A DNA stretch of 64,000 bases from Bacteroidota bacterium (GCA_033763735.1 JANRJY010000025.1:9917-73916); one strand, 5' to 3'; shown: positions 21,195-53,490, counted from the first letter of the stretch. Translations and numbers: made by a program. The notes: generated by a model not told the origin, from the letters alone.

Positions 21195-21236
21195 TAATTC
21201 ATCGGAAATATTTTATAAATTCGTTTATGATAAAAT

Positions 21237-34290: not shown

Positions 34291-36315
34291 ATGAAAAATT
34301 CTAAAAATAAATCTTTAGAAAATAATACATCTTCCAATCTTGCCTCTTTACAACAAAGAGCCAATAATGATTTTTTTAGTTTTAATTTCGGCAATAAAGA
34401 AAAGTGGTTTATAGGAATTTCACTTTTACTATACTTTTCATTCATATTATTGAAATGGAATGGTTCATCAATTTCAGTATGGAATCAAATATTTGGAACC
34501 ATTCAAAACACTAAAAAAAGTGTAATTTTTGGAGAAGCAGTACCCATCAGACAAGATGAATGGATGGTTTATACACCCATGCTTTTAAACCAATACGAAA
34601 ATGGAATGAATGTTATAAATGAAAGTTTAGGAGAAGGTAATATAACATTACCTATTAATGTTCCAGTGAAACATTTTTCTATTTTTTTCAAACCCAACAT
34701 GATATTTTTTTTATTTCTTAATAAAGAACAAGGGTATTCTGCTTTTTGGAATTTCAAAATCTTTGGGATTATTATTTCTGTTTTTTTGTTTTTGAGTTGT
34801 CTAACTAAAAACAATTTTTTACTTTCCGTTTTTGGGGCATTTTGGGTGTATTTGTCTCCTGTTACACAATGGTGGTTTTCTACAAATATTCCGGAAATGA
34901 CTACATCATTTTGCCTTACATTCTTTTTTTTAATTCAGTTTATTAATTCTACGAAAAAATTACACTCTATTCTTTATTCGTTTGGTCTTGTATATTCCAT
35001 GTTTTTCTTTGCAATGCAATTATATCCGCCATATATGTTTCCCTTTGCCCATTTTGGAGTTTTTTTATTGATTGCAATTATTTTTGAAAAGAGAGAGTTA
35101 ATCAAATTGGTTTTTTTGGATAAGATCAAAATGATTAGCTTCATTTTTTTGACTATTATTTCAGGACTATTGTTTGCACTTTTTTTACAAGAAATGAAAA
35201 GTATTGTTGACACAATGTTACAAACGGAATATCCTGGAAAACGAGATTTTACTGGGGTAACCATTATATCTTATTTAGATGCATTTACAGCATACTTTGA
35301 TTTCTTTCATACTAAAACTAAATTTCCAATGTATCCCGGTAGTGGAAGTCAATCAGAAATAGCAGAGGCTTTATGGATATTTCCATTTGCTTTTTTTGGT
35401 GTCGTTTATAATGCCATTAGATATAAGACACACGATTATGTTTTATACGTTTTCCTGATTTATTTCATCTTTATTGTGCTATGGGTTTTTGTTGGTCTAC
35501 CTCCTTTTTTGTACAAAATTTTACTTTTAGATATGACTACCCCTGATCGAGGAAGTCAAATAATAGGAATTTGTGGAATCTTTATAACGATTATTTATAT
35601 ATCTAGAACGAGTAAAAATGCAAATATGAATACCTTTGCATCAATTATTTTTTCTATATTAATTTTTGTCTTTGTTGCATTTATTGGATATAAATCAAAT
35701 GAAGTTTTAAATAATTTTTTTACAAGTACTCAAATTTTAGTTGCTGCATTCTTAATCTCGTTATCAGGCTTTTGCATGTTTAATTTTAATAATATGTTTT
35801 TAAGATTTGGTTTTGTAGGTATTATTTTATTTATATCTTTCAAAAATATTGCCATAAATCCGATACAAGTTGGACTTTCTCCTATTACCAAAAATCCATT
35901 ATATGATAATGTAAAATCAATTTACCGTTTAAATCCTGATAAAGGTTGGATTGTTATGGGTAGTTCTATGGTAGCAAATTTCATAAGATGCACAGGAGCT
36001 AAAGTAATTAACGGTGTCAATTATATTCCTAATTACAAATATACGTCTGTATTGGACCCTGAAAATAAAAACAAAAAAGTTTACAACAGATATGCCCACA
36101 TTACATGTTATCCGTTTATTAATAATACAGATACCATTGCATTTACGCTTAATAATGCTGATGCATACTCAATGGGTATCGACCCTTCTTCTGAAAAACT
36201 CAAAAAAATAGGAGTGAAATATGTTGTTTTTACTTACGATCCCCAACCTATTGAGGTTAGAAATCTAGAACAAATCTCAAAAGATGGCATATCAATTTAT
36301 CAATTTAAAGACTAA
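34291..36315 (+). CDS. Large polytopic membrane protein with C-terminal soluble domain; uncharacterised GT-C-like family (paralog of 41730..43736)
   Basis: 674 aa. TM1 is followed by the loop KSVIFGEAVPIRQDEWMVYTP, many further TM helices, and a ~130-aa C-terminal domain (TGAKVINGVNY...NRYAHITCYPFINNTD...FTYDPQPIEVR). Confidence 0.5.
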   Translation: MKNSKNKSLENNTSSNLASLQQRANNDFFSFNFGNKEKWFIGISLLLYFSFILLKWNGSSISVWNQIFGTIQNTKKSVIFGEAVPIRQDEWMVYTPMLLNQYENGMNVINESLGEGNITLPINVPVKHFSIFFKPNMIFFLFLNKEQGYSAFWNFKIFGIIISVFLFLSCLTKNNFLLSVFGAFWVYLSPVTQWWFSTNIPEMTTSFCLTFFFLIQFINSTKKLHSILYSFGLVYSMFFFAMQLYPPYMFPFAHFGVFLLIAIIFEKRELIKLVFLDKIKMISFIFLTIISGLLFALFLQEMKSIVDTMLQTEYPGKRDFTGVTIISYLDAFTAYFDFFHTKTKFPMYPGSGSQSEIAEALWIFPFAFFGVVYNAIRYKTHDYVLYVFLIYFIFIVLWVFVGLPPFLYKILLLDMTTPDRGSQIIGICGIFITIIYISRTSKNANMNTFASIIFSILIFVFVAFIGYKSNEVLNNFFTSTQILVAAFLISLSGFCMFNFNNMFLRFGFVGIILFISFKNIAINPIQVGLSPITKNPLYDNVKSIYRLNPDKGWIVMGSSMVANFIRCTGAKVINGVNYIPNYKYTSVLDPENKNKKVYNRYAHITCYPFINNTDTIAFTLNNADAYSMGIDPSSEKLKKIGVKYVVFTYDPQPIEVRNLEQISKDGISIYQFKD

Positions 36316-36317
36316 AA

Positions 36318-37559
36318 ATGTATAAAGAAGTTAATGTTTGCCGAATTTGCGGTAACACAAAATTTGAACCTATAGTTTCTCTTGGTGTCCAATCACTTAC
36401 CGGTGTTTTTCCAAAATCTATTGACGATAAAGTTGATAAAGGTCCCCTTGATTTAGTACAATGTAAAGGAGATAATTCATGTGGATTAGTACAATTAAAA
36501 CATTCTTTTAGTCATGAAGAAATGTATGGAATGAATTATGGGTATAGATCAGGGCTAAACAAATCTATGGTTATGCATTTGTCCTCAATAACAAAGAAAG
36601 TTTCTCAAATTATTGAATTAAAAGACAATGATGTAATAATTGATATTGGAAGCAATGATTCAACCTTATTGCAATCATATGCCCAGGTAACAAAGGCAAA
36701 ACTTAATTTAATAGGAATTGACCCAACCGGAATCAAGTTTAAAAAGTATTACCCTGAAAATATTAATTTGATTGCTGACTTTTTTTCTGCAAATATCTTT
36801 AAAAAGGCTTATCCAAACAAAAAAGCTAAAGTTGTTTCTTCAATTGCAATGTTTTACGATTTAGAAGACCCTACTTCATTTATGGAGGACATTTATAATG
36901 TGTTATCTGACGATGGAATTTGGATATTTGAACAAAGCTATCTTTTAACCATGTTGGAAGTCAATGCATATGACACAATTTGTCATGAACATATCGAATA
37001 TTATGCAATAAGACAAATTGAATGGATGGCTAAAAAAGTTGGTTTCAAGCTTGTTGATATTATCTTAAATGATATCAATGGAGGAAGTTTTCAAATAATT
37101 TGCACAAAGGCTATAAATAATAATATTAAATCAAGCAGTAATTTGGACAAATTAATAATCAATGAGAATGACAACCTTCATAAACTTTTGATTAATTATA
37201 AAATACAGGTTGAAAATCATCGTAATGAATTAATAAAATTATTAACCAAACTTAAAACTGAAGGCAAAAAAGTATTTGGTTATGGGGCCTCCACAAAGGG
37301 AAATGTTATATTACAATATTGCGGCATTGATAAAAATTTGATGCCTTACATCGCAGAAGTAAATGAAGATAAGTTTGGATCTTTTACACCAGGCACTCTA
37401 ATTCCAATTATCTCTGAAAATGAAGCAAGAGCATTAAAACCGGATTATTTCCTGGTTTTACCTTGGCATTTTAGAGCAGGCATTTTAGAAAGAGAAAAAG
37501 AGTTTTTAAAAAATGGAGGTAAATTCATTTTTCCATTGCCAAAAATTGAAATAGTTTGA
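36318..37559 (+). CDS. Zinc-ribbon SAM-dependent methyltransferase of the NDP-hexose C-methyltransferase (TylCIII-like) architecture
   Basis: N-terminal CRIC...C....C Cys cluster, a class I SAM fold (VIIDIGSNDSTLL), and a C-terminal domain (VFGYGASTKGNVILQYCG...YFLVLPWHF) typical of Methyltransf_13/14-type enzymes. Confidence 0.6.
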   Translation: MYKEVNVCRICGNTKFEPIVSLGVQSLTGVFPKSIDDKVDKGPLDLVQCKGDNSCGLVQLKHSFSHEEMYGMNYGYRSGLNKSMVMHLSSITKKVSQIIELKDNDVIIDIGSNDSTLLQSYAQVTKAKLNLIGIDPTGIKFKKYYPENINLIADFFSANIFKKAYPNKKAKVVSSIAMFYDLEDPTSFMEDIYNVLSDDGIWIFEQSYLLTMLEVNAYDTICHEHIEYYAIRQIEWMAKKVGFKLVDIILNDINGGSFQIICTKAINNNIKSSSNLDKLIINENDNLHKLLINYKIQVENHRNELIKLLTKLKTEGKKVFGYGASTKGNVILQYCGIDKNLMPYIAEVNEDKFGSFTPGTLIPIISENEARALKPDYFLVLPWHFRAGILEREKEFLKNGGKFIFPLPKIEIV

Positions 37560-38509
37560 TGAGAAAAACTGCTTTAATTGTTGGATTTACTGGACAAGAT
37601 GGTCAAATTCTATGGAAGTATCTTGAAAATTTAGGTTACAATTTAATAGGTATTTCAACAAACAAAATAATTTCGAACTATTATAGTCTAAATCACTCTA
37701 ATTTTAATATAAGTTCTGAATCAGATATTAAATCATTGATTTCAACTATATATATTGATGAAATATACTTTCTTGCAGCTGTGCACCAATCTTCTACTGA
37801 CGTACTTGATAACGAATTAGATTATTTTAGGAAAAGTAATGAAGTAAATTTTGTATCTCCAAGTACAATTCTTTCTTGTATTTTTAACTATTCAAAAAAG
37901 ACCAAATTTTTTTATGCTTCATCTTCTCACATTTTTAGAGGCTCAGTACAAACGCCACAAAATGAAGAAACAAAACCAGTTCCGTTGTGTATATACGGAA
38001 TTACAAAAACTTCTGGTACTTATATTACTCAGTACTTTGCAAATAAAGGTGTATTTGCTTCTGTGGGAATCTTATATAATCACGAGTCAATTTTTAGAGA
38101 TCGAAAATTCGTTTCACAAAAAATTATAAAAGGAGCAGTTGCAATCAAAAAAGGACTTTTAGATTCATTAACTTTGGGCTCATTGGATGCTAAAATTGAT
38201 TGGGGTTATGCACCTGATTTTGTAAAGGCTTATCATATGATCTTAAATATTTCAAAGCCAGATACTTTTATTATAAGTACATATAAGCTGACATCTATTG
38301 CTGATTTTGTAGAAGAAACCTTTAATCAGCTCGGACTGGACTGGAGAAAATATATTAAAATTGACAGTGAAATCATAAAGAAAGGCTTACAAAACAATCT
38401 TTTAGGAGATCATTCTAAGCTAAAAAATATGACTGGATGGTATCCTGAAACCACTTTTTCTGAAATGATTAAAATATTATTAGATTATGAACTTAGCAAC
38501 AATGGATAA
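37556..38509 (+). CDS. Gmd-family extended SDR (GDP-sugar 4,6-dehydratase/reductase-like)
   Basis: ALIVGFTGQDGQILWKYL (GxTGQDG), YGITK (YxxxK) and LYNHESIFRDRKFVSQKI. The usual T-S-E catalytic segment reads SSSHIF. The start overlaps the upstream stop (ATGA). Confidence 0.6.
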   Translation: MMRKTALIVGFTGQDGQILWKYLENLGYNLIGISTNKIISNYYSLNHSNFNISSESDIKSLISTIYIDEIYFLAAVHQSSTDVLDNELDYFRKSNEVNFVSPSTILSCIFNYSKKTKFFYASSSHIFRGSVQTPQNEETKPVPLCIYGITKTSGTYITQYFANKGVFASVGILYNHESIFRDRKFVSQKIIKGAVAIKKGLLDSLTLGSLDAKIDWGYAPDFVKAYHMILNISKPDTFIISTYKLTSIADFVEETFNQLGLDWRKYIKIDSEIIKKGLQNNLLGDHSKLKNMTGWYPETTFSEMIKILLDYELSNNG

Positions 38510-39242
38510 TTTATCAGAAATTCTTGTAGCAATTCCAACATATAATGAAGCTGAAAATGTCAAAAAATTATTTGAACAAATTTTTAAACTCAATTTCAAG
38601 AAAGATATTTTGTTTTTGGATGACAACTCTCCGGATGGAACAGGTGAAATAATTAAAATGATCCAATCAGAAAATAAAAATGTTTTTGCTATACATAGAA
38701 TAGGTAAGCTTGGAATTGGTAGTGCTCATCAAGAAATCATTAATTTTGCATATCAAAAAGGATATAAAATTCTTGTTACAATGGATTGTGATTTTACACA
38801 TTCCCCATCATCAATAATTGACTTCATTAATAACTCCGACAATTATGATGTAGTAGTAGGTTCAAGATATATGAAAAAAGATAGTCTCAAGGACTGGAAT
38901 CTAATCCGAAAATTTTTAACCAATTTTGGCCATATACTAACAAAGTATGTTTTAAATTTGAAAGAAGATGCAACAGGAGCCTTTCGATTATACAAATTAA
39001 ATAATATTCCAAAGCAACTTTTCTCATTAGTTGAGTCAAAAAGCTATTCTTTTTTCTTTGAAAGTCTGTTTATTATTTCCTTCAATAAATTTAAAATAAA
39101 AGAAATACCTATAGATTTGCCTTCACGTACTTATGGAAATTCAAAAATGGAAATAAAAGATGTTATTAAGAGTTTAAAATATTTGTATTTATTATTAATG
39201 AGAAAATATTTTAACAGGCAGTCCTTAATAATCAAGAATTAA
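38502..39242 (+). CDS. GT2 polyprenol-phosphate glycosyltransferase (DPM1/ArnC-like)
   Basis: ILVAIPTYNEAENV, FLDDNSPDGTGEII, VTMDCDFTH and VVVGSRYM match the dolichyl/undecaprenyl-phosphate sugar synthase layout. An alternative start lies at 38487. Confidence 0.65.
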   Translation: MDNLSEILVAIPTYNEAENVKKLFEQIFKLNFKKDILFLDDNSPDGTGEIIKMIQSENKNVFAIHRIGKLGIGSAHQEIINFAYQKGYKILVTMDCDFTHSPSSIIDFINNSDNYDVVVGSRYMKKDSLKDWNLIRKFLTNFGHILTKYVLNLKEDATGAFRLYKLNNIPKQLFSLVESKSYSFFFESLFIISFNKFKIKEIPIDLPSRTYGNSKMEIKDVIKSLKYLYLLLMRKYFNRQSLIIKN

Positions 39243-39243
39243 T

Positions 39244-39927
39244 ATGGCACTAACTTACGAACAAATAGAACAAGATTGGGAGATTTACTGGGGAGCTCAA
39301 GGTAAACCCACCAGTAAAACATATGATTTAATCGCAGAGTTTTACAGAAGAAATATTATTATTAAAATTCTGAATCATTTCTTAAAAAAACATTATAAAG
39401 AGCATGAAAATGTTTTGCATGCCGGATGCGGAAGTGGACAAGTTGATTTAGATGCTAATATTTACTTGAATATTACAGCTCTTGACATATCATCAAAAGC
39501 GCTTGAAATTTACAAAAAAGTTAATCCTTCTAATAAAAAAACAGTAAAGGGAACAATTTTTGATTTGCCGTTTGAAGACAACTCTTTTGATGGAATTTAT
39601 AACCTTGGAGTTATGGAACACTTTACTGAAGAAGAAATTCAACTGATCTTGAAAGAATTCAAAAGAGTAGTCAAAAAAGAAGGTAAGATTATTTTATTCT
39701 GGCCTCCTACCCGTGGAATCACTGTTAATTTCTTAGACTCAGTACATTTTATTTGTAATAAGATATTTCAAATGAATGTTAAACTCCATCCCGATGAGAT
39801 TACAAGAATCAGATCCAAAAAACATGCTCAAGAAATTATCGAAAAATCTGGAATGAATTTGATTGACTATTATTTTGGCATTAAAGATATATTCACTCAA
39901 GCAGTTATAGTTGCTCAAAAAAAATAG
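39244..39927 (+). CDS. Class I SAM-dependent methyltransferase
   Basis: VLHAGCGSGQVDL (motif I), DGIYNLGVMEHF and GKIILFWP. Confidence 0.7.
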   Translation: MALTYEQIEQDWEIYWGAQGKPTSKTYDLIAEFYRRNIIIKILNHFLKKHYKEHENVLHAGCGSGQVDLDANIYLNITALDISSKALEIYKKVNPSNKKTVKGTIFDLPFEDNSFDGIYNLGVMEHFTEEEIQLILKEFKRVVKKEGKIILFWPPTRGITVNFLDSVHFICNKIFQMNVKLHPDEITRIRSKKHAQEIIEKSGMNLIDYYFGIKDIFTQAVIVAQKK

Positions 39928-39935
39928 GCTTTGTT

Positions 39936-41717
39936 ATGAATTTGGACAAAAAAAATAAACTAAGCAATATACTTCCTTCTGTATTTGTTGCAATAGTAAT
40001 AATTAGTTTCAGCTTTAGTTTGTTTAAGAATATTTCTTACCCATTGCTTTGGAATGATGAAACTGATGCAGCTATGTGGTCAACCAGAATAATGGAGTTT
40101 GGCTATCCTAAAGTTCATGATGGTAAAAACAAAGTATTTTTAGTATATGCCCCAAATATGAAAATGGGCTATAAAAAGGAACATGATGCATATATTTATA
40201 TAACTTGGGGTGGGTATTATTTTGCGGTAATTGGAGAATTTCTTTCAAAATTTACAAACGACATTTATGTTAAAACGGCTTTAATGCGCATTCCTTTCGC
40301 TTTGGCCGGTTTTATTGGTATTATTTTGATGGTGTTATCGATCAAAGACTTTTTCCTCCAAAATCGAACATTACTTTGGTTAGCAATCATATTTGGTATT
40401 TTTGAAATTTTATCCATATCACTTGTATTACACATGCGAGAAGTACGATATTTTTCTTTAGTAATCTTTTTTACAGGAATATTGTTTTTTATATTTTTTA
40501 GGTTTCAGCTTCTTAATAAAATGTCATTAATCGCTTATAGTATTGCAATGACTATCTTGTTATTCTTAACATTCAATACTAATTTTATAGTTTTTGCAAT
40601 TTTTGTTGGAACAATTGGATTTTATCAATTCATTTTATTTTTATTTCAATTTAAAAATGGTAAATCATTTGACAAAAAATCAGGTAATACTGAATCATGG
40701 AAAGTCAGAATCATAAATCTATTTATTCAATATATACCTTTGTTTATTTCTATATTGTTGGCAATTCCACTGATTTCTTATTTTGAAATAATTGAATCAT
40801 CTGCTGAATTGTCAAAATTCAAAAATTTCAATTTAAATCTTTATTTTTCAAATCTTTCAAGTGTGTTAAAATACTTTACTAAACTTGAATATCTATATCT
40901 GGCAATCGTTGTCAAAATTATTCTTTTATTAACTTTTTTAACCGTAAAAAAATCTATATCCGAAAAACCAACCAAAAACAAAGAAAATGAAATTGTAATT
41001 ACTAAAATTCCATTTACAATCAATTATAAAATAATGGTTTCAAATTTTATGTTATTATTTATTTTAATTTATGCGCTTATTAATTGTCGATTACCATATT
41101 TTTATGTGCGCCATTTTATTGTATTACAACCTGTAATGTCACTTATGATGGTATTGGATATTTTTATTGTTTTTCAAATTTTTAATGAAAATGTTAAAAA
41201 AACCAGTATAACTTTTTCAAAAGCACTAATTTCTTTTGTCATTATTATTGCGTTTGCAGTTAACACAGGTAACAAATTAAAATATATTAATTTGCACTTA
41301 TATGAACTAACTCATCAATATAAAGGAGTGCTTGATTATATTATTCCCTATATTAAGGAAAACTATAAAAACCCTGAGAAACTAACAATTGCTACGAATT
41401 ATGAAGAATTAGCTTATATGTTTTACTTAAAATCTAAAACTACAATAGGTTTTATTAAAAATAATTTAGAAGAAGACAAAAAATATCAACCTGATATTAT
41501 TATTTACAGAAGAGGTTGGGGTTGGCAAAATGACCAAAATATTTTTAATGATTTCTTTCAAAAAGCCAAATACAAACCCATACAATTTCCGGTAGTGGAT
41601 TTCTATGTGAATAATATGCCAGAAATAAATGAAAAAGATCCGGTTACACATCAGTTTAAGACATTAACAACGAATGACCCTAATCAGATGATGACAATAT
41701 ATGTTAAAGAAGATTAA
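39936..41717 (+). CDS. Polytopic GT-C glycosyltransferase, ArnT/PMT_2 (GT39/83)-like
   Basis: 593 aa. TM1 is followed by YPLLWNDETDAAMWSTRIMEFGYP (DE...A..S..M..G as in ArnT-type enzymes), many TM helices, and a ~130-aa C-terminal soluble region. Confidence 0.55.
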   Translation: MNLDKKNKLSNILPSVFVAIVIISFSFSLFKNISYPLLWNDETDAAMWSTRIMEFGYPKVHDGKNKVFLVYAPNMKMGYKKEHDAYIYITWGGYYFAVIGEFLSKFTNDIYVKTALMRIPFALAGFIGIILMVLSIKDFFLQNRTLLWLAIIFGIFEILSISLVLHMREVRYFSLVIFFTGILFFIFFRFQLLNKMSLIAYSIAMTILLFLTFNTNFIVFAIFVGTIGFYQFILFLFQFKNGKSFDKKSGNTESWKVRIINLFIQYIPLFISILLAIPLISYFEIIESSAELSKFKNFNLNLYFSNLSSVLKYFTKLEYLYLAIVVKIILLLTFLTVKKSISEKPTKNKENEIVITKIPFTINYKIMVSNFMLLFILIYALINCRLPYFYVRHFIVLQPVMSLMMVLDIFIVFQIFNENVKKTSITFSKALISFVIIIAFAVNTGNKLKYINLHLYELTHQYKGVLDYIIPYIKENYKNPEKLTIATNYEELAYMFYLKSKTTIGFIKNNLEEDKKYQPDIIIYRRGWGWQNDQNIFNDFFQKAKYKPIQFPVVDFYVNNMPEINEKDPVTHQFKTLTTNDPNQMMTIYVKED

Positions 41718-41729
41718 TTATTAAAACAA

Positions 41730-43736: not shown

Positions 43737-43741
43737 CTTAA

Positions 43742-44674
43742 GTGAATATTGCTGTAATTATACCTTGTTATAAAGTAGAAAATCATATTGAAAATGTTAT
43801 TAATACATTACCCAGTATAATAACTTATATTATTGTAGTTAATGATTGTTCTCCTGACAATACTAAATTGATTCTTAATAAAATAGGTACAACAAATAAT
43901 AAAGTTATTTACTTAGAACATACGCAGAATCAAGGTGTAGGGGGGGCAATGAAAACAGGGTTTGTAAAAGCCTTAGAACTTAATGCTGATATTATTATTA
44001 AACTTGACGGGGATGGTCAAATGAACCCAAAATATATTCCAGAATTTATTAAACCAATTATCGAAGGGAAAGCAGATTTTACCAAAGGGAATAGGTTCAG
44101 AAATTACCGAACCATTCAAAGAATGCCTATTATAAGACGCATTGGAAATTTAGGATTGAGCTTTTTAACAAAAGCAGCCTCAGGTTATTGGAATATTTTT
44201 GATCCTACGAACGGTTATTTCGCTATGAATATAACCACACTTAAGCTAATAAATCTTGAAACGCTTCATAACCGTTATTTTTTTGAAAGTTCGTTGTTAA
44301 TTGAAATGTATCATAGTGATACAGTTATTCAAGATATTCCTATCGATGCTCAGTATGGAGAGGAGATTTCAAATTTGTCTGTAACAAAAACATTATTTGA
44401 ATTCCCACCAAAATTATTCTTAGCTTTCATTAAAAGAATTTTATTCAAATATTTTCTATATGATTTTAATATAGCTTCAATTTATATAATGTTAGGTTTT
44501 CCAATATTTACATTGGGTGCTTGGTATGGTTTAATCAATTATATTAAATACACTCATTTACATATTGTAGCTCCGACCGGTACTGTAGTTATTCCAACTT
44601 TGCTCATTACTTTGGGATTTCAGTTAATACTTTCAGCAGTTAATTTTGATGTATCCAATTATCCAAAAAAATAA
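43742..44674 (+). CDS. GT2 bactoprenol-phosphate glycosyltransferase (GtrB/ArnC-like) with C-terminal TM helices
   Basis: GTG start. IAVIIPCYKVENHI, VVNDCSPDNT, KLDGDGQMNP, and two C-terminal hydrophobic helices (IYIMLGFPIFTLGAWYGLI, VVIPTLLITLGFQLILSAV). Confidence 0.7.
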   Translation: MNIAVIIPCYKVENHIENVINTLPSIITYIIVVNDCSPDNTKLILNKIGTTNNKVIYLEHTQNQGVGGAMKTGFVKALELNADIIIKLDGDGQMNPKYIPEFIKPIIEGKADFTKGNRFRNYRTIQRMPIIRRIGNLGLSFLTKAASGYWNIFDPTNGYFAMNITTLKLINLETLHNRYFFESSLLIEMYHSDTVIQDIPIDAQYGEEISNLSVTKTLFEFPPKLFLAFIKRILFKYFLYDFNIASIYIMLGFPIFTLGAWYGLINYIKYTHLHIVAPTGTVVIPTLLITLGFQLILSAVNFDVSNYPKK

Positions 44675-44711
44675 TAAAGTAATTATTTAAAACTTTACCA
44701 AATTGAATAAA

Positions 44712-45422
44712 ATGGAAATATCTGATTTACCGGTATTATTATTAGCAGGGGGTAAAGGAACCAGAATACAACATTTACTCAATGATTTACCAAAGCCGAT
44801 GTATCCTGTATTCAACAGACCATTTTTGGACTATCAAATTGATTATTTGTTAAAATTTGGGTTTCAAAATTTTTATATTTCTACTGGTTATCAAGGTCAT
44901 GTAATTGCAAACTATTACCGAAATAATAAAAATATCAATATAATTCACGAGACTCAGCCACTTGGCACTGGAGGAGGCATTTTATTTGCGATGTCAAAAA
45001 TCAAAGAGCCTAATGTAATTGTTCTAAATGGTGACACACTTTATTTATTAGATTTTTTTTCTTTTGTCAATCATGCATTAAACAACCCATTACACACATG
45101 TATAGCTTTGAAAACTGTTGTTGACTCCACTAGATACGGTACAGTAATATTAGATAACTTTAATAAAATAACCCATTTTATTGAAAAAGGGAAAAGCAAC
45201 ACCGGACCTGGATTAATTAATGCGGGAATATATTATTTGAACAAGCAACAAATCTTAAATTATAGTTTTCCTGAAATATGCAGTATTGAAGAAACCATTT
45301 TTCCCAAAATAATAGAATCAGGTATTTATGGATTTAAGGCTCATAATGAATTTATTGATATTGGCACCCCAGAAACATTACATGAAATAGAAAATTTTGT
45401 CAAAGTAAACAACCTAATATAG
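44712..45422 (+). CDS. hddC: Sugar-1-phosphate nucleotidylyltransferase, D-glycero-alpha-D-manno-heptose-1-phosphate guanylyltransferase-like
   Basis: LLAGGKGTRIQHLLNDLPKPM (GxGTR), LGTGGGI and LNGDT, with a size of about 236 aa. The track ORF uses a TTG at 44703. Specificity is inferred from the neighbouring hddA/gmhA. Confidence 0.6.
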   Translation: MEISDLPVLLLAGGKGTRIQHLLNDLPKPMYPVFNRPFLDYQIDYLLKFGFQNFYISTGYQGHVIANYYRNNKNINIIHETQPLGTGGGILFAMSKIKEPNVIVLNGDTLYLLDFFSFVNHALNNPLHTCIALKTVVDSTRYGTVILDNFNKITHFIEKGKSNTGPGLINAGIYYLNKQQILNYSFPEICSIEETIFPKIIESGIYGFKAHNEFIDIGTPETLHEIENFVKVNNLI

Positions 45423-45431
45423 TAATTTTAA

Positions 45432-46259
45432 ATGGCTGCATTGACGGTAATTATGACTTTTTTTAATGAATCTCCTGATTTATTGAAACGCTCGGTATAT
45501 TCGATTTTAAACCAAACTTTCAATGATTTCGAGTTTATTATTATAGCTGGAAACCCTGAAAATTCTGCAGGCATTAATTTTATACTTAATGCTCAAAAAA
45601 CAGACTCAAGAATTATCTTTAAAGTATATGAAACTAAACTATTGATGACAGTATGTCTAAATATTGCAATAAAAATGGCTAAAACTCCTTTAATAGCCAT
45701 TCAAGAAGCAGATGATGAGTCTTTGCCTCTAAGATTTGAAAAGCAAATTGAAGTTTTTAATACCAATTCAAATATTGACGTAGTAGGAACCGCTATTAGA
45801 TATGTAGACAATTTTACAGGAAAAGAAATAGTAACCAGATATTACCCCCAATATAGTTTTAAAGAATTTAACAGATTTGCAGCTATTGCACACCCAACAG
45901 TAATGGCAAAAAAATATTTATATGAAAAATACGGATTTTATAGCGAAGAAGAGAAACATAGGAACAGCCCTGATTTTGAATTATGGGTAAGGTGGAAGCA
46001 ACAAGGTGTGATTTTTTATAATATTCAGGAAGTGCTATTTCTATATTACCAAAGTCAAGATAATGGAAGAAATAAGAATGTAAAAAAAACACTTAAATCT
46101 GTCATAAATATTAAGGAACACCATTTAAGTAAATTAAAATTTACATTTAATGATTATCTATTTTTGTTTGCAGAAAAAACATTATTACTTTTTCCTGCCT
46201 CGTTTATTTCAAAATTGTTTTATGTTTGGGGTCAAACTCAAAAAAAATCAAATAATTGA
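45432..46259 (+). CDS. Family 2 glycosyltransferase
   Basis: LTVIMTFFNESPDLLKRSVYSILNQTFNDFEFIII and the acidic EADDES motif. Confidence 0.7.
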   Translation: MAALTVIMTFFNESPDLLKRSVYSILNQTFNDFEFIIIAGNPENSAGINFILNAQKTDSRIIFKVYETKLLMTVCLNIAIKMAKTPLIAIQEADDESLPLRFEKQIEVFNTNSNIDVVGTAIRYVDNFTGKEIVTRYYPQYSFKEFNRFAAIAHPTVMAKKYLYEKYGFYSEEEKHRNSPDFELWVRWKQQGVIFYNIQEVLFLYYQSQDNGRNKNVKKTLKSVINIKEHHLSKLKFTFNDYLFLFAEKTLLLFPASFISKLFYVWGQTQKKSNN

Positions 46260-46262
46260 TTA

Positions 46263-47249
46263 ATGATTATTTCAAAAACACCACTTAGAATAAGCTTTTT
46301 TGGCGGAGGCACTGATTACCCCGATTATTTTAAACAATATGGGGGCGCAGTTTTATCAACTTCAATTAATAAATACGTATATATCTCAGTAAATCAAATA
46401 TCTGCAATTTCTGAATATAAATACAAAAATACATATTCAAAAGTTGAACAAGTACAAACTATAGACGAAATCATTCATCCTTCTGTTAGGGAATGTTTGC
46501 GATACATGAAAATTAATGATGGTCTTGAAGTACATACAATCAGTGATTTACCTGCAAAAACAGGGTTAGGATCTTCTTCTTCGTTCACTGTGGGACTGCT
46601 AAATGCTTTGCATGAGTATCAAAACACAAAAAGAACTGCTTTGGAACTGGCTAAGGAAGCAATATATGTAGAGCAAAAATTAATAGGTGAAAAAGTAGGT
46701 GTTCAAGATCAAAGTGCTGCTGCTGTTGGGGGGCTTAATTATTTTGAGTTTAATACAGATGAATCAATCTCCTATAAGCCGGTACCCATATCAAAAGAAA
46801 GAATTGTTGCTTTTAAAAATCATATGTTACTTTTTTATACAGGTGTGCAAAGATTTGCAGAGGATGTATTAAAAGAACAAATTGAAAAAACAAAAACAGG
46901 GGAAGTAAAGCAAGATCTTGCTTCCATTCGAAAAATGGTAGATAAAGGATATGAAATTCTCACTTCAAATAGTTCTCTTTTGGAGTTCGGAAAACTTTTG
47001 GATGAAGCCTGGAAACTTAAAAAGAACTTATCATCTTCAATTTCAAACAATTACCTGGATGAAATGTATAATACTGCAATTAATGCCGGAGCCTCTGGAG
47101 GAAAACTATTAGGAGCTGGCGGAGGTGGATTTTTTCTCTTTTTTGCAGATCCATCTAAACACATTGAAATTCGAAAAGCATTAAATCAATATCAAGAAAT
47201 CCAATTCGATTTTGATAATGATGGAAGTAAAATCATATTCGTACACTAA
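46263..47249 (+). CDS. hddA: GHMP sugar kinase, D-glycero-alpha-D-manno-heptose-7-phosphate kinase-like
   Basis: TPLRISFFGGGTDYPDY, PAKTGLGSSSSFTVGL (GHMP motif II) and GGKLLGAGGGGFFLFF (motif III). Confidence 0.7.
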   Translation: MIISKTPLRISFFGGGTDYPDYFKQYGGAVLSTSINKYVYISVNQISAISEYKYKNTYSKVEQVQTIDEIIHPSVRECLRYMKINDGLEVHTISDLPAKTGLGSSSSFTVGLLNALHEYQNTKRTALELAKEAIYVEQKLIGEKVGVQDQSAAAVGGLNYFEFNTDESISYKPVPISKERIVAFKNHMLLFYTGVQRFAEDVLKEQIEKTKTGEVKQDLASIRKMVDKGYEILTSNSSLLEFGKLLDEAWKLKKNLSSSISNNYLDEMYNTAINAGASGGKLLGAGGGGFFLFFADPSKHIEIRKALNQYQEIQFDFDNDGSKIIFVH

Positions 47250-47261
47250 ATTAACTTAAGA

Positions 47262-48182
47262 ATGAAAAAAATATTTGATTACATAGTCTCGAAAAGTTTT
47301 GATATGGTATATTTTTTTACTGATAAAATGGGTATATTTTATTATATTTCCCCTTTTTTTACGAAATTAAATGAATTAATTCATCTTTCGAATACGATTT
47401 TTGTAAGAAATCTTATAAAAAAACAATCAAAAAACAACAATATAATTGCTCCCAATGTAAATAATTCTTTGGAAAACACGGGTGGAATCAAAATTAGTGA
47501 AGAACAAATTATTGAAAAAATTAACTCAAAAGTTTTAATTGGCTCTAAACCTTCAAGGTTAGCTAATTTTGAAGGAGTGGCTTTAGATGATGCTTTGAGC
47601 TATAAGTATGAATGGAGACACTTAAGTTTTTACCCAATAACGAAAGCAATTGATGCCATTTCTAAAAAATATTTAAAAATCAATCATTTCAGTTTGTTAG
47701 AATTGGGATGTGGAGCTGGAAGTATATTTGAATTTTTAAAATACAATGATTGCAAAGAGTATTTAGGATTAGATGCTAATATTATTGCGTTAAAAAACAG
47801 CCCTTACATAAAAGGATTTGAGAGTAATTTTAAGGAGGTGAATTTAGATCAAGAAATTAATTTTCAATATAAATTTGATATTATTATTTCATTTGAGGTT
47901 CTGGAACATTTAAAAAAAACCACTATACCAAACATTTTAAAAACAATAAAAAATCACATGCATGATAATTCAATATTTTTAGGTACGGCCTGTCTTAGAG
48001 AAATGGAAGTGCATTTGACAGTTGAGTCAAAAACTTGGTGGTTAAAACAATTCGAAGAAGCAGGATTAATACCACATCCTAAGGAAAAGGAAATTATTGA
48101 AATTTTACAAGATCATCACCCTTATAATTGGAATCTAGCTACATCAATATTGTTTGCAATGGTTAAAAAAAATGATAATTAA
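47262..48182 (+). CDS. SAM-dependent methyltransferase (C-terminal class I fold) with an uncharacterised N-terminal region
   Basis: LLELGCGAGSIFEFL (motif I) and FDIIISFEVLEHL. Confidence 0.6.
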   Translation: MKKIFDYIVSKSFDMVYFFTDKMGIFYYISPFFTKLNELIHLSNTIFVRNLIKKQSKNNNIIAPNVNNSLENTGGIKISEEQIIEKINSKVLIGSKPSRLANFEGVALDDALSYKYEWRHLSFYPITKAIDAISKKYLKINHFSLLELGCGAGSIFEFLKYNDCKEYLGLDANIIALKNSPYIKGFESNFKEVNLDQEINFQYKFDIIISFEVLEHLKKTTIPNILKTIKNHMHDNSIFLGTACLREMEVHLTVESKTWWLKQFEEAGLIPHPKEKEIIEILQDHHPYNWNLATSILFAMVKKNDN

Positions 48183-48555
48183 ATTTATTTCATATTTGGT
48201 ACTTTTTTCTCTTTCCGCAGCAGGTTCAACTACATTAATGGGAGACAAAGACATGTTAGCCGGAAATTTGTTATCTAAAGAAGGAATTTTAACTTTGATC
48301 ATGAATTGGAGATTTTATTTAGCAATTTTTTTAGCTATTTTGAGCAGATTCACCTTTGTTCTTATGAATAGTGAACTTTTAAAAATAGAATATACGCGAA
48401 ATAACGCGACAAATATTACTACAATTGTTTCGATTGCTTCAATAATTGTGGTCTTTTTTTCAAACTATATATTTTTGAATGAATGGCTTACATCAAAGCA
48501 ATTTGTTGGTTCAGTTATTATCTTATTTGGAGTTTGGCTAGTTTTAACAAGATAA
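48172..48555 (+). CDS. Small four-helix DMT/EamA-half membrane protein, ArnE/ArnF- or GtrA-type lipid-linked sugar flippase candidate
   Basis: About 127 aa with four hydrophobic helices and the EamA-like C-terminal helix FVGSVIILFGVWLVL. The ATG at 48172 overlaps the upstream gene by 11 nt. The track ORF uses a TTG at 48154. Confidence 0.5.
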   Translation: MIIKFISYLVLFSLSAAGSTTLMGDKDMLAGNLLSKEGILTLIMNWRFYLAIFLAILSRFTFVLMNSELLKIEYTRNNATNITTIVSIASIIVVFFSNYIFLNEWLTSKQFVGSVIILFGVWLVLTR

Positions 48556-48565
48556 ATACAAAATT

Positions 48566-49774
48566 ATGAAATGTAGAGTATGTGATTCTGAACACTTAGA
48601 GTTAGCAGTGGATTTAGGAAACCAACCTTGGTGTAACAATTTTCTTAAAAAAGAAGAAATAGGTAAGGAGCCTTATTATCCACTTAGATTAATGTATTGC
48701 CACGATTGTGCTACAACACAACTTGATTATACCGTTAAAAAGGAAATAATGTTTGGCGATCACACTTATCTATCAGGCGTTACCAAATCGTTATCTGCTC
48801 ATTTTGAGCGCATAGCAAAGGAAACCGATGAATTATTTTGTAAAGGTAAAAATGAGAAATGGGTTTTGGATATTGGCTCAAATGATGGTACTCAGCTAAA
48901 ACATTTTTTAAAATTAGGATACAATGTGGTGGGGGTCGAATCTTCTAAAACCACCGCAAAAATGGCAAATGATGCAGGCGTATATACCATTAACGAATAC
49001 TTTAATGAAGATTTAATCAATAAATATAACTTTAAAGAAAAGTTTGATTTATTCAATGCCGCTGGAGTTTTTTTTCATTTAGAAGAACTCCATTCTGTGA
49101 CTCGAGGCATTAAAAAAGGGCTTAAAAAAGAGGGGGTTTTTGTTGTTCAGTTTTTGTATATGAAGCGAATTGTAGAAAACTTAGCTTTTGATCAAATATA
49201 TCACGAACATCTACTCTATTATACTCTTAAAACTATTGAAGTCCTTTTGAATAGACATGGCTTAAGTATGTTTGATGCTTACGTTGACCCAATTCATGGA
49301 GGTTCAGTTATTGGCTATATAACACACAAAGAAGCCAATAAACCAGCATCTGATCGACTACAAATATTAAGAGAGGAAGAAGAAAAGGATAAAATCAATG
49401 AATTTTCAACCTATGTAGAGTTTGCAGAAAGAATTAAAAAAATGAAGGAAGAAAATCTAAAATATTTGACTTCAGCGAAAAAAGCAGGGAAAAGAATTTG
49501 GGGAATGGGAGCACCTGTCAAAGGCAACACAATGCTTAATTATTTTGGTGTTGGAACTCAATACATTGATTTTCTTGTTGAAAAGAATAAACTGAGAAAA
49601 GGATTATATTCACCTGGCCAACATATTCCAATAGTTATTGAGGAAGAACTAACGGAATTGCCGGATATATATTATGGTTTAGCGTGGAACTTCAAGAAGG
49701 AGATTTTGGCAAATAACCAAGATTTAATTAAAAAAGGAGTAGAATTTTACTTTCCAGTAAATCCTAAAGAATAA
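48566..49774 (+). CDS. Zinc-ribbon SAM-dependent methyltransferase of the NDP-hexose C-methyltransferase architecture (paralog of 36318..37559)
   Basis: CRVC...C..C Cys cluster, VLDIGSNDGTQL, and a C-terminal domain IWGMGAPVKGNTMLNYFG...YYGLAWNF. Confidence 0.6.
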   Translation: MKCRVCDSEHLELAVDLGNQPWCNNFLKKEEIGKEPYYPLRLMYCHDCATTQLDYTVKKEIMFGDHTYLSGVTKSLSAHFERIAKETDELFCKGKNEKWVLDIGSNDGTQLKHFLKLGYNVVGVESSKTTAKMANDAGVYTINEYFNEDLINKYNFKEKFDLFNAAGVFFHLEELHSVTRGIKKGLKKEGVFVVQFLYMKRIVENLAFDQIYHEHLLYYTLKTIEVLLNRHGLSMFDAYVDPIHGGSVIGYITHKEANKPASDRLQILREEEEKDKINEFSTYVEFAERIKKMKEENLKYLTSAKKAGKRIWGMGAPVKGNTMLNYFGVGTQYIDFLVEKNKLRKGLYSPGQHIPIVIEEELTELPDIYYGLAWNFKKEILANNQDLIKKGVEFYFPVNPKE

Positions 49775-49776
49775 AA

Positions 49777-50703
49777 ATGAATATTTTAGTAACTGGGGCA
49801 ACGGGGTTTCTTGGACAATTTCTAATTCAAAAATTAGAAGCTGAGGGCCATAATGTTGTAAAAATAAATTCAAAAAACGCAGATTTAACAACGCAAGTAT
49901 CACTGAATAATTTTAATTCAGTAAAATACGACCTAATTTATCACTTGGCTGCATGGACGCAGGCAGGTGATTTTTGTCTGTACCATCCAGGTGAACAATG
50001 GGTTATAAATCAAAAAATCAACACTAATGTTTTAGGCTGGTGGTCAGAATTTCAACCGCAGTCAAAATTTATAAGCATGGGTACAAGTTGTTCCTATGCT
50101 CCTGAAAATCAACTTATTGAAAAAAATTATTTATTAGGCGAACCAATTGATAGTTTGTATACATATGCACATACTAAAAGAATGTTACAAATAGGGCTTC
50201 AGTCTTTAAATAAACAATATGGCCTTAAATATCTAACTGTAGTGCCTTCTACTTTGTATGGTGAAAGTTATCATAATGATGGCAGACAAATGCATTTCAT
50301 ATTTGATTTAATAAGAAAAATTATCAGAGGAAAAGAATTTGGAGAAGAGGTTATATTATGGGGAGATGGATTCCAAAAAAGAGAACTTATTTATGTCAAA
50401 GATTTTGTAGAAGCCCTATATTTTTTATCAGGTATTTCAGAAAATGAAATTATCAATATAGGTGGAGGCAAAGAGTATACAATTCGTGAATTCGCAGATT
50501 CAATTTGCAATATTGTTGGATATGATCATTCTAAAATTATATATGACACATCAAAATATACAGGTGCAAAATCAAAATTTTTGTCAATTGAAAAATTAAT
50601 GAAAATTTATCCAAAATTCAGTCAAATATCACTTGAATCAGGTTTAAGAAAAACTATAGATTGGTTTTATACTTCCAAAGCGTATTTACCCCCAAGTAAT
50701 TAA
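49777..50703 (+). CDS. GDP-L-fucose-synthase-like SDR (NDP-4-keto-6-deoxy sugar 3,5-epimerase/4-reductase family)
   Basis: ILVTGATGFLG, MGTSCSYAPE (compare GSSCIYP in Fcl/GMER) and YAHTK (YxxxK). Confidence 0.6.
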   Translation: MNILVTGATGFLGQFLIQKLEAEGHNVVKINSKNADLTTQVSLNNFNSVKYDLIYHLAAWTQAGDFCLYHPGEQWVINQKINTNVLGWWSEFQPQSKFISMGTSCSYAPENQLIEKNYLLGEPIDSLYTYAHTKRMLQIGLQSLNKQYGLKYLTVVPSTLYGESYHNDGRQMHFIFDLIRKIIRGKEFGEEVILWGDGFQKRELIYVKDFVEALYFLSGISENEIINIGGGKEYTIREFADSICNIVGYDHSKIIYDTSKYTGAKSKFLSIEKLMKIYPKFSQISLESGLRKTIDWFYTSKAYLPPSN

Positions 50704-50723
50704 ACCCCAAATTTTCTTATGAG

Positions 50724-50757
50724 CTAAACGATAAAATCAATTTGTTTTATCGTTTAG
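50724..50757 (+). terminator. Strong hairpin after the 18-gene block (terminator or attenuator)
   Basis: CTAAACGATAAAA (50724-50736) pairs with TTTTATCGTTTAG (50745-50757), a 13-bp stem. It is AT-rich and has no clean T-run after it. Confidence 0.5.
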
Positions 50758-50772
50758 TATAAAATATATTTG
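50741..50772 (+). promoter_or_regulatory. Candidate Bacteroidota sigma-A promoter for gmhA
   Basis: TTTG at 50741-50744, a 20-nt spacer, then TATATTTG at 50765-50772 (TAnnTTTG), 29 nt before the gmhA ATG. Confidence 0.45.
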
Positions 50773-50801
50773 CGACCATTTTATTCGAATTACCTCGCAC
50801 C

Positions 50802-51380: not shown

Positions 51381-53490
<2,110 letters not shown>

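Follow-up and report, generated by a model that had tools for sequence, protein, structure and literature searches.

A 64,000-nucleotide stretch of a Bacteroidota metagenome-assembled genome (GCA_033763735.1, JANRJY010000025.1:9917-73916; hereafter the window) carries a dense array of glycosylation genes, which an initial annotation had read as two repeats of one logic of sugar tailoring, lipid loading and transfer, perhaps arisen by an ancient duplication. Our analysis points to a different origin. We consider it probable, with some reservation, that the array consists of two juxtaposed and independently inherited cassettes for extracytoplasmic glycosylation of the three-component type, which are functional analogues lying side by side and not duplicates. 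Cassette 1 would extend from 36318 to 41717 and cassette 2 from 41730 to 52322. According to the logic that both would share, the sugar of a special sugar nucleotide is placed on polyprenyl phosphate by a family 2 glycosyltransferase (GT2) of the DPM1/GtrB/ArnC type, the product is flipped, and a glycosyltransferase of the GT-C fold attaches the sugar to an envelope acceptor.

All 15 open reading frames (ORFs) of the initial annotation are present at their coordinates, all on the + strand, and its domain calls (hddC-like, hddA-like, EamA-like, Gmd-family and Fcl-like) agree with Pfam and NCBIfam; the first ORF, 34291-36315, is NCBI protein SFY32_03830. These genes, together with two that lie beyond the annotated range, are listed here with the names used below (SDR, short-chain dehydrogenase/reductase; SAM, S-adenosylmethionine; TM, transmembrane).

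34291-36315, + strand: DUF_A, polytopic membrane protein with DUF7657 and DUF7654, 674 aa, predicted GT-C fold; extra paralog without a loader of its own
36318-37559, + strand: ZnMT_A, zinc-ribbon sugar 3-C-methyltransferase homolog; cassette 1
37556-38509, + strand: Gmd-family SDR, 317 aa, His at the catalytic-Glu position; cassette 1
38487-39242, + strand: GT2dpmA, DPM1/ArnC-type polyprenyl-phosphate glycosyltransferase by homology, putative loader; cassette 1
39244-39927, + strand: MT227, class I SAM methyltransferase (Pfam Methyltransf_11/25); cassette 1
39936-41717, + strand: TM593, candidate glycosyltransferase of GT-C fold, 593 aa, no Pfam model; cassette 1
41730-43736, + strand: DUF_B, GT-C-fold protein with DUF7657 and DUF7654, 668 aa, candidate transferase; cassette 2
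43742-44674, + strand: GT2tmB, GtrB-like polyprenyl-phosphate glycosyltransferase by homology with two C-terminal TM helices, putative loader; cassette 2
44703-45422, + strand: HddC-like, sugar-1-phosphate guanylyltransferase homolog; cassette 2
45432-46259, + strand: GT2_275, soluble EpsE-like GT2 of ordinary Leloir type; cassette 2
46263-47249, + strand: HddA-like, GHMP sugar kinase; cassette 2
47262-48182, + strand: MT306, class I SAM methyltransferase (Pfam Methyltransf_23/12); cassette 2
48154-48555, + strand: small EamA-like protein, 133 aa, 4-5 TM helices, ArnE/F-style flippase candidate; cassette 2
48566-49774, + strand: ZnMT_B, zinc-ribbon sugar 3-C-methyltransferase homolog of a very conserved lineage; cassette 2
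49777-50703, + strand: Fcl-like SDR, GDP-sugar epimerase/4-reductase type; cassette 2
50802-51380, + strand: gmhA, GmhA sedoheptulose-7-phosphate isomerase; cassette 2, beyond the annotated range
51387-52322, + strand: SDR311, close homolog of the PDB 6vo6 protein, candidate 4-keto GDP-heptose former; cassette 2, beyond the annotated range

We assembled loci centred on DUF7657 genes (43, genomic) and on TM593 genes (80, metagenomic), together with several contigs around single homologs (all designated by L numbers), and mapped the window's proteins on them by tblastn and BLASTP. The initial annotation had proposed a search for loci with a single module, and each cassette indeed occurs without the other. 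Cassette 1 stands by itself in eight listed loci (L088, L049, L044, L048, L058, L061, L065 and L089). L088 keeps the gene order of cassette 1 and has no DUF7657 gene; there an SDR of the Glu type, a ZnMT_A homolog (53% identity), a Gmd-type SDR (44%), a methyltransferase and a fusion of GT2dpmA with MT227 form a block divergent from TM593 (35%) and another loader-type GT2. L049 carries GT2dpmA (59%), MT227 (60%) and TM593 (45%), and in the other six TM593 is accompanied by an A-type ZnMT, a small GT2 and Gmd-type SDRs. Cassette 2 is found by itself in four loci (L131, L112, L127 and L001). L131 is collinear with it, comprising the DUF7657 gene (36%), GT2tmB (63%), GT2_275 (57%), SDR311 (71%), hddA (70%), MT306 (37%, at the same position), ZnMT_B (80%) and Fcl (69%); L112 contains TM593, gmhA (68%), DUF7657 (35%), GT2tmB (65%), SDR311 (71%), hddC (60%) and GT2_275 (53%); and in L127 and L001 a DUF7657 gene precedes GT2tmB (64% and 63%, respectively). 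A GtrB-like GT2 immediately follows the DUF7657 gene in the window and in L001, L005, L112, L127 and L131. Co-occurrence was counted where the anchor gene has 4 kb or more of sequence on each side. Of 31 such TM593 loci, 14 have a loader-type GT2 no further than 3 kb away and eight a ZnMT no further than 10 kb away; for 28 DUF7657 loci, the corresponding numbers are nine and two.

These comparisons redraw the modules. A logic of tailoring, loading and transfer does occur twice, as had been described, but the membrane protein that travels with the module A genes is TM593, not DUF_A, and genes of GT-C fold occur three times (DUF_A, TM593 and DUF_B) and not twice. The GT-C enzyme of cassette 1 is TM593, and DUF_A is an add-on with no counterpart in any stand-alone cassette 1. 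Module B, drawn at 41730-50703, is a real cassette that was cut short: gmhA and SDR311 are co-inherited with it elsewhere, so that cassette 2 ends at 52322. A related Bacteroidota locus (L129, 2777-6438) carries ZnMT_B (92%) and SDR311 (88%) with split transketolase-like genes, an SDR::GT2 fusion (653 aa) and a TylF-type methyltransferase, and has an unrelated 592-aa protein of no Pfam family in place of the DUF7657 gene. The same sugar-making core is joined there to different transferases, and possibly to further branched-chain chemistry.

The repetition might alternatively reflect the tandem duplication of an ancestral module made of a GT-C, a C-methyltransferase/SDR pair and a loader GT2, with modules A and B as diverged copies that each have a GT-C of the DUF7657 type. 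All-against-all BLASTP does show resemblance between the modules. DUF_A and DUF_B, both with DUF7657 and DUF7654, match at 37% identity over 650 aa (E 1e-123), so that the claim of paralogous first genes at 34291 and 41730 holds; the ZnMTs match at 29% (E 6e-54), and the two small loader GT2s at 27% (E 2e-9). In an exhaustive search of 1.84 billion representatives, the best non-self match of DUF_A is its neighbour DUF_B (37%), the next being at most 35%, and DUF_A groups with DUF_B and its L003 ortholog in neighbour-joining trees. Moreover, each ZnMT is directly followed by a probable ketoreductase-type SDR.

Yet most of these pairs do not behave as sisters. ZnMT_A falls in a clade of TM593-associated ZnMTs (neighbour-joining bootstrap 0.99-1.0) and ZnMT_B in a clade of its own (0.96-1.0), the two clades being separated at bootstrap 1.0; ZnMT_B is 72-92% identical to more than 100 other proteins against 29% to ZnMT_A, and scores higher against the actinomycete MtmC (218 bits) than against ZnMT_A (176 bits). 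The MT/SDR pairs had been called paralogous between the modules, which stands for the ZnMTs as homologs but not for the SDRs: these match at 24.7% and E 2e-4, a superfamily-level resemblance and not that of a paralog pair, and they belong to different subfamilies and enzyme types. Each loader GT2 has relatives at 57-75% identity elsewhere, compared with 27% between the two. Stand-alone versions of module A have TM593 and never DUF7657. Co-inheritance of the modules as originally drawn also fails at L003, where the order is TM593, GT2dpmA (75%), MT227 (78%), a DUF7657 gene of the B type (53% to DUF_B) and, further on, a ZnMT of the A type (44% to ZnMT_A). The proposed phylogenies gave different answers for different pairs: the ZnMTs are not sisters, an outcome of the kind that the initial annotation had itself named as refuting its claim, and DUF_A joins the pair of DUF_B and its L003 ortholog, itself united at bootstrap 1.0, at only 30-33%. 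The positional counterparts of DUF_B in L131, L112 and L127, DUF7657 genes too, are only 35-36% identical to it, while the neighbouring enzymes reach 57-80%; this indicates that the family evolves fast, so that a 37% match alone is no proof of local duplication. Taken together, the sequence comparisons lead us to reject duplication at the level of the module, and we regard the whole tandem-duplication account as very unlikely; duplication at the level of the DUF_A/DUF_B gene is possible but unproven. Two DUF7657 genes less than 10 kb apart also occur in L020 and L023, from Claveliimonas monacensis and from a Eubacteriaceae metagenome-assembled genome, so a multi-copy arrangement is not unique to this window.

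The transferase step depends on what the large membrane proteins are. DUF_A matches Pfam DUF7657 and DUF7654 at 2.7e-95 and 2.2e-32, and DUF_B at 5.4e-102 and 7.7e-27. TM593 has no match in Pfam or NCBIfam and no PDB sequence match at E < 0.08, and none of the three proteins matches a characterised GT-C family by sequence in Pfam, NCBIfam or the PDB, the last searched with the DUF7657 profile; fold-level evidence from predicted structures was therefore needed. The AlphaFold2 model of DUF_A (predicted local distance difference test, pLDDT, 73; predicted template modelling score, pTM, 0.79) retrieved GT-C enzymes as all of its top 12 Foldseek matches in the PDB (STT3, ArnT, PglB, AftD and EmbC), with probability near 1. 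For TM593 (pLDDT 89.9, pTM 0.92), all of the top 24 matches are GT-C enzymes (STT3, ArnT, ALG9, PglB, Pmt4, AftA/B and Emb), with E values of 1.7e-5 to 5e-2 and template modelling scores (TM-scores) of 0.22-0.54. Transporters rank only below the GT-C matches for both models, at probability < 0.2.

GT-C enzymes have a polytopic membrane domain of 7-13 TM helices and, as a hallmark, conserved acidic residues in the loop that follows TM1, the first on the extracytoplasmic side. After TM1, D89-E90 (motif R87-x-D89-E90) is invariant in 11 DUF7657 sequences and D41-E42 (motif W39-x-D41-E42) in 35 TM593 sequences. K/R residues are denser in the N-termini than in loop 1, which suggests that the N-termini are cytoplasmic, with the D-E loop outside. 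Profile comparison shows DUF7657 and TM593 to be unrelated (hhalign probability 0.6%). The predicted structures thus support the earlier label 'GT-C-like' at fold level for DUF_A, DUF_B and TM593; the more specific label of TM593 as an ArnT-like GT-C agrees with its modelled fold, as judged by Foldseek, but not with its sequence, which is not a member of ArnT/PMT_2 (GT83).

We also weighed whether the large membrane proteins could be polymerases, ligases, flippases or acyl or other transferases, and the small GT2s ordinary Leloir enzymes, the likeness to GT-C being generic. The lack of any sequence-level match to a characterised GT-C family, the modest TM-scores (up to 0.54) and a weakly Wzy_C-like gene adjoining the island would all suit such an explanation, but it sits badly with high-probability structural matches that are GT-C enzymes in 12 of 12 and 24 of 24 cases, with an invariant D-E after TM1 in both families, with the recurrence of both beside DPM1/GtrB-type GT2s, and with the finding of no initiating phosphoglycosyltransferase, Wzx, ABC or Wza-type exporter in the 64-kb window. 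We judge it highly improbable.

Both families are large. More than 555 homologs of TM593, whose family has no Pfam model, are spread over Bacteroidota, Omnitrophota and Patescibacteria, and exhaustive profile searching yielded 3,928 representative clusters for DUF7657. DUF7657/DUF7654 proteins occur in Bacteroidota, Firmicutes including gut Lachnospiraceae, Desulfobacterota and Methanobrevibacter; Nibrella viscosa JCM 17925 (L002) is a cultured organism with a DUF7657 gene. A search for literature on DUF7657, DUF7654 and their Pfam accessions found none. Some TM593-family proteins (P0063 and P0126) bear C-terminal TPR repeats. An Omnitrophota contig (L046, 1679-5292 and 13331-14953) has its TM593 gene behind a methyltransferase gene, in the company of type IV pilus genes, three PMT_2-type GT-C genes and a radical SAM gene, surroundings that hint at proteins or pilins as one candidate class of acceptor.

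The small GT2s are the putative loaders. Both belong to Pfam GT2 and have the Pyrococcus furiosus dolichyl-phosphate-mannose synthase 5mlz as best PDB match, GT2dpmA at 77 bits, followed by ArnC and GtrB, and GT2tmB at 53 bits. Their best NCBIfam matches are PpgS, PgfS, ArnC and AglJ (PpgS, PgfS and ArnC for GT2dpmA), all below the equivalog cutoffs. GT2tmB has two C-terminal TM helices (~residues 242-300) and GT2dpmA none. By homology, both would be polyprenyl-phosphate sugar synthases of the GtrB/DPM1/ArnC type. Wherever GT2tmB occurs at 63-65% identity (L001, L112, L127 and L131), the DUF7657 gene adjoins it every time. In the same way, MT227 lies next to the GT2 in both L003 (78%) and L049 (60%), and in L088 (640-2061, - strand) the two are fused into one protein of 473 aa, which matches GT2dpmA at 57% over residues 14-236 and MT227 at 45% over residues 267-473. 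This Rosetta-stone fusion suggests that methylation is coupled to lipid loading. The small EamA-like protein, with four to five TM helices by hydropathy, scores 30.4 bits against Pfam EamA, just above the cutoff of 28.2; a homolog (43%) lies in L129 two genes upstream of ZnMT_B, with the TylF methyltransferase between. GT2_275 belongs to Pfam GT2, matches NCBIfam EpsE at 108 bits, below the cutoff, and is 53-57% identical in L112, L129 and L131.

Turning to sugar tailoring, ZnMT_A and ZnMT_B both contain a Methyltransf_13 zinc ribbon, a class I SAM methyltransferase domain (Methyltransf_23 in ZnMT_A) and Methyltransf_14, all above the Pfam cutoff, with four N-terminal Cys in ZnMT_A and five in ZnMT_B. 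The best PDB match of ZnMT_A is MtmC, a bifunctional enzyme (4rv9, 171 bits), followed by TcaB9 and KijD1; MtmC is likewise the best match of ZnMT_B (218 bits), and both align over their full length to 4rv9, 3ndi and 5t64 (E 1e-39 to 1e-63). Such alignments identify both as homologs of sugar 3-C-methyltransferases of the TylC3/TcaB9/MtmC type. Many of the more than 100 homologs of ZnMT_B are cyanobacterial, and the 72-75% identity to proteins of Crocosphaera, Nostoc, Snowella, Synechocystis and Lusitaniella is unusually high across phyla for a sugar-tailoring enzyme. In Synechocystis sp. LKSZ1 (L130, 8001-9203), the ZnMT_B homolog has a photosystem reaction-centre gene on one side and a CsoS1D-like gene on the other, and is not in a glycan locus.

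The SDR that follows ZnMT_A belongs to Pfam GDP_Man_Dehyd (8e-55), and its best PDB matches are GDP-mannose 4,6-dehydratases (GMDs; 155-165 bits), in line with its annotation as a Gmd-family protein; it reaches only 179 bits against the NCBIfam gmd cutoff of 415 and is thus not at equivalog level. For the motif comparison we used what we take to be the landmark motif of the Escherichia coli GMD. The window's protein reads ASSSH, with His where canonical copies (S-T/S-S-E) have the catalytic Glu, so the annotation holds for the family but the position that marks canonical GMDs is not kept. Its L088 ortholog (L088_2971, 44%) has the same His. Related loci with two Gmd-family genes keep one Glu-containing and one Glu-less copy, and the window's gene is orthologous to the latter. 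The Glu-less Gmd-family SDR is, judging by this pattern, probably a 4-ketoreductase that acts after C-methylation. Two other assignments were set aside: the protein is not Rmd, since the solved Rmd structure scores 45 bits against 155-165 for GMDs (the reductase role is proposed from the motif); and the Gmd-like and Fcl-like SDRs were dropped as consecutive dehydratase and reductase of one pathway because the Gmd-like protein is Glu-less, which also means that the locus has no canonical 4,6-dehydratase. Across L048, L058, L065, L088 and the window, the Gmd-family SDRs fall into two types, with S-T/S-S-E or with K/R/H/L at the Glu position; it is consistently the Glu-less type that is found with the A-type C-methyltransferase, and this points to a reductase subfamily not yet recognised among Gmd-family proteins. 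The Fcl-like SDR of cassette 2 scores 148 bits against the NCBIfam Fcl cutoff of 500, has GDP-L-fucose synthases as best PDB matches (~100 bits) and shows T-S-C at the Ser-x-Cys position; it follows ZnMT_B in L129 and L131 as well, at 69-72% identity.

The remaining sugar genes of cassette 2 resemble a GDP-heptose pathway. gmhA exceeds its cutoffs (NCBIfam 277.5 bits against 265; TIGR00441 236.9 against 209) and is 65-68% identical in L003, L112 and L125, beside TM593 or DUF7657 genes. SDR311 aligns over its full length with PDB 6vo6/6vo8 (432 bits, E 1e-128, about 60% or more positions matching), and is 71% identical in L112, 88% in L129 and 71% in L131; 6vo6 is presumably Campylobacter jejuni Cj1427, the GDP-heptose C4-dehydrogenase. 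HddC-like is 60% identical in L112 and 54% in L129, HddA-like is 70-76% identical in L003, L129 and L131, and the hddA/hddC-like genes are co-inherited with gmhA and SDR311 in L003, L112, L129 and L131.

The analysis shows the gene content, the homologies, the folds, the conserved motifs and the co-inheritance elsewhere; from homology and gene context, we infer the following substrates, order of steps, lipid carrier, flipping and acceptor. In cassette 2, sedoheptulose-7-phosphate would be converted to GDP-heptose by GmhA, the HddA-like kinase, a GmhB encoded elsewhere and HddC-like; SDR311 would oxidise C4 to give the 4-keto form, ZnMT_B would C-methylate it, probably at C3, the Fcl-like SDR would epimerise and/or reduce the sugar, and MT306 may add an O-methyl group. 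GT2tmB would then load the sugar on polyprenyl phosphate, the EamA-like protein would flip it, and DUF_B would attach it to an envelope acceptor. In cassette 1, ZnMT_A would C-methylate a GDP-4-keto sugar, drawn either from SDR311 or from a housekeeping GMD outside the window, and the Glu-less SDR would reduce the C-methylated product; GT2dpmA would load it, with MT227 acting on the same substrate stream and, because of the L088 fusion, probably tightly coupled to the loader, and TM593 would transfer the loaded sugar. DUF_A, a third GT-C without its own loader, would probably use one of the same lipid-linked donors at another acceptor site, as several Gtr GT-Cs can share one GtrA/GtrB (PMC11127046). 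More specifically, but only as a tentative possibility, cassette 2 may make a new GDP-3-C-methyl-heptose which, with a second C-methylated sugar, provides polyprenyl-phosphate donors for two GT-C families without a characterised member; the fusion of loader and methyltransferase would then indicate that methylation takes place at the lipid-linked stage. A search of the literature combining C-methyltransferases with GDP-heptoses found nothing relevant on C-methylated GDP-heptoses.

A further alternative is a single branched pathway in which GDP-heptose from the cassette 2 enzymes is turned by SDR311 into a common 4-keto intermediate, from which ZnMT_A with the Glu-less SDR, and ZnMT_B with the Fcl-like SDR, make two different C-methylated products, which pass through two loaders to three GT-Cs and into one glycan, perhaps sequentially. 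The locus has one nucleotidyltransferase (hddC-like) and one candidate 4-keto former (SDR311), and the canonical Glu-containing GMD of stand-alone loci is lacking from the window's cassette 1. The array is packed like a single operon, the A/B boundary between TM593 and DUF_B being a 12-bp gap unmarked in sequence; in several genomes a TM593 gene borders a DUF7657 gene, and L003 interleaves parts of the two cassettes. However, eight TM593 loci contain a ZnMT against only two of 31 with gmhA/hdd genes; since the cassette 1 genes are mostly without heptose genes nearby, their usual substrate is probably not a heptose. L131 has a complete, collinear cassette 2 but no cassette 1, and cassette 1 could be supplied by a housekeeping GDP-mannose 4,6-dehydratase encoded beyond the 64-kb window. 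On balance, a single branched pathway seems to us rather unlikely.

Several observations weigh against two independently inherited cassettes and their proposed roles. In the window, as in L063, L125 and L127, a DUF7657 gene comes immediately after TM593, and L112 and L003 have one nearby; the two kinds of GT-C are often inherited together despite the boundary between the cassettes. Within the window, cassette 1 has neither the nucleotidyltransferase nor the canonical 4,6-dehydratase found in its stand-alone versions; having no 4-keto former of its own, it would depend for its 4-keto sugar on cassette 2 or on another part of the genome, and the cassettes may therefore not be independent here. 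No flippase candidate was found for cassette 1. HddA-like (175 bits against 600) and HddC-like (136.6 against 300) are far below the curated cutoffs, though these are their best NCBIfam matches, and GmhB, a HAD-type phosphatase, was not found among the window ORFs scanned. GmhB is encoded outside the cluster in C. jejuni too, so its absence from the locus does not exclude a heptose pathway. The DUF_A model is moderate (pLDDT 73), with Foldseek E values of 1e-3 to 2e-2 and TM-scores of 0.21-0.47. As for methods, the trees are neighbour-joining only, and the co-occurrence counts were made by tblastn with the window's own proteins on a sample that includes some near-duplicate loci.

The proposed organisation has clear counterparts. 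Three-component systems have been described, including loci with multiple GT-Cs and the GT136 pentofuranose system (Kelly et al. 2024, PMC11127046). Like Gtr-type systems (GtrA flippase, GtrB undecaprenyl-phosphate-glucose synthase and a serotype-specific GT-C), the window combines a putative GT2 loader, a small membrane flippase candidate and a candidate transferase of GT-C fold, and a Gtr-type system can likewise stand apart from the backbone pathway. Unlike them, its GT-Cs fall in two families without a characterised member, its flippase candidate is EamA-like, not GtrA or MATE, and present in one cassette only, and a methyltransferase is coupled to one loader and fused to it elsewhere. The donors are apparently tailored GDP-sugars, C-methylated and heptose-based, and not UDP-Glc or phosphoribosyl pyrophosphate as in the Gtr and GT136 systems, and the window differs from these and from Arn in holding two such systems in tandem, with an extra GT-C. 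The Arn pathway (ArnA/B, the ArnC loader, the ArnE/F flippase and the GT-C ArnT) follows the same order of tailoring, GT2 loading, EamA/DMT-type flipping and GT-C transfer, and both models have ArnT among their best structural matches, as GT2dpmA has ArnC among its best matches. However, the window's GT-Cs are not ArnT/PMT by sequence, homologs of ArnA, ArnB and ArnD are lacking, and its sugars are GDP-derived by homology, whereas the Arn sugar is derived from UDP-GlcA.

On the side of sugar synthesis, the capsular GDP-heptose route of C. jejuni comprises GmhA, HddA, GmhB (outside the cluster), HddC, the C4-dehydrogenase Cj1427, epimerases and C4-reductases (PMC10680097). The window has the same set, namely gmhA, hddA-like, hddC-like, the 6vo6 homolog (432 bits) and an Fcl-type reductase, but with HddA and HddC below the equivalog cutoffs. 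It differs in placing a sugar 3-C-methyltransferase between the 4-keto former and the reductase, methyltransferases not being mentioned in PMC10680097, and its product seems bound for a polyprenyl-phosphate loader and a GT-C, not for a cytoplasmically built capsule. The ZnMTs share the three-domain architecture of antibiotic 3-C-methyltransferases (MtmC, TcaB9, KijD1 and TylC3 type) over their full length, at low identity to the solved enzymes. The antibiotic enzymes act on dTDP-2,6-dideoxyhexoses, whereas the ZnMT substrate is probably GDP-linked, and a heptose in the case of ZnMT_B; moreover, the ZnMTs are encoded among genes for envelope glycans, in Bacteroidota, cyanobacteria and candidate phyla, and not in a context of secondary metabolism.

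The two cassettes and DUF_A belong to an island of about 31.7-52.3 kb that holds 20 co-directional ORFs on the + strand (31686-52322). The ORFs overlap or are spaced by at most 28 bp, except for 80 bp before DUF_A and 98 bp before gmhA. The G+C content is 26-30% in the island and 33-37% in its flanks, which carry housekeeping genes (aromatic amino-acid synthesis, AlaRS, GcvP, NuoH, a GldN-like gene, DeaD and EF-Ts). Given these flanks and the lack of an initiating transferase, Wzx or exporter in the window, the island is a stand-alone 'decoration' island and not part of a backbone polysaccharide locus. A + strand terminator scan found none inside the array, and sigma-70 promoter matches in the array are no commoner than in shuffled sequence. 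The 98-bp gap before gmhA (50704-50801) contains an AT-rich inverted repeat (AAACGATAAAA...TTTTATCGTTT) followed by a -7 motif of the Bacteroidota type (TATATTTG at 50765), 37 bp 5' of the gmhA start codon. This gap could hold an internal terminator and promoter, weak evidence given that the -7 motif (TAnnTTTG) occurs in the locus at ~1.3 per kb.

Directly upstream of DUF_A lie three more tightly spaced co-directional ORFs (31686-32303; 32305-33666, + strand; 33671-34210), for which no homologs were found in the related loci. The middle one encodes a 453-aa protein with ~10 TM helices, no Pfam match and a weak NCBIfam match to the LA_3751/LA_3752 putative glycosyltransferase family (E 1.4e-5, 24 bits), and it may be a fourth membrane glycosyltransferase; a relationship to TM593 was rejected, as profile-profile comparison shows none. 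The other two are a 205-aa orphan and a RibD_C-like reductase. At the other end, a convergent 11-TM gene with weak Wzy_C similarity (52309-53490) adjoins the island, and a TolC-like gene lies downstream; these two are the only hints of an acceptor. Further away, 10 kb upstream of the island, a GalE-like SDR (332 aa) stands beside a Uma2-family endonuclease-like gene (20196-21821), and a Uma2-family gene also lies between gmhA and the TM593 homolog in L003 (6070-6693). Near the window end and apart from the island, a WbqC-like protein (62172-62798, + strand; Pfam E 2.7e-35) is encoded beside infC/rplT; the WbqC-like family is linked to O-antigen loci.

Three-component periplasmic glycosylation is a well-known general mechanism, and the organisational claim made here is largely ordinary. 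It does illustrate that repeated gene logic within one locus can come from juxtaposed analogous cassettes and not from duplication, and the natural limits of the cassettes became visible here only through comparison with other loci. What merits follow-up is the implied chemistry and the two orphan GT-C families. If the more specific, tentative reading is true, three-component systems carry elaborately tailored sugars, with a likely new branched-chain heptose indicated by cassette 2, whose ZnMT_B lineage is unusually conserved from Bacteroidota to cyanobacteria; and two large orphan families, DUF7657/DUF7654 and TM593, would be GT-C glycosyltransferases dependent on polyprenyl-phosphate sugars, both of which would found new CAZy families.

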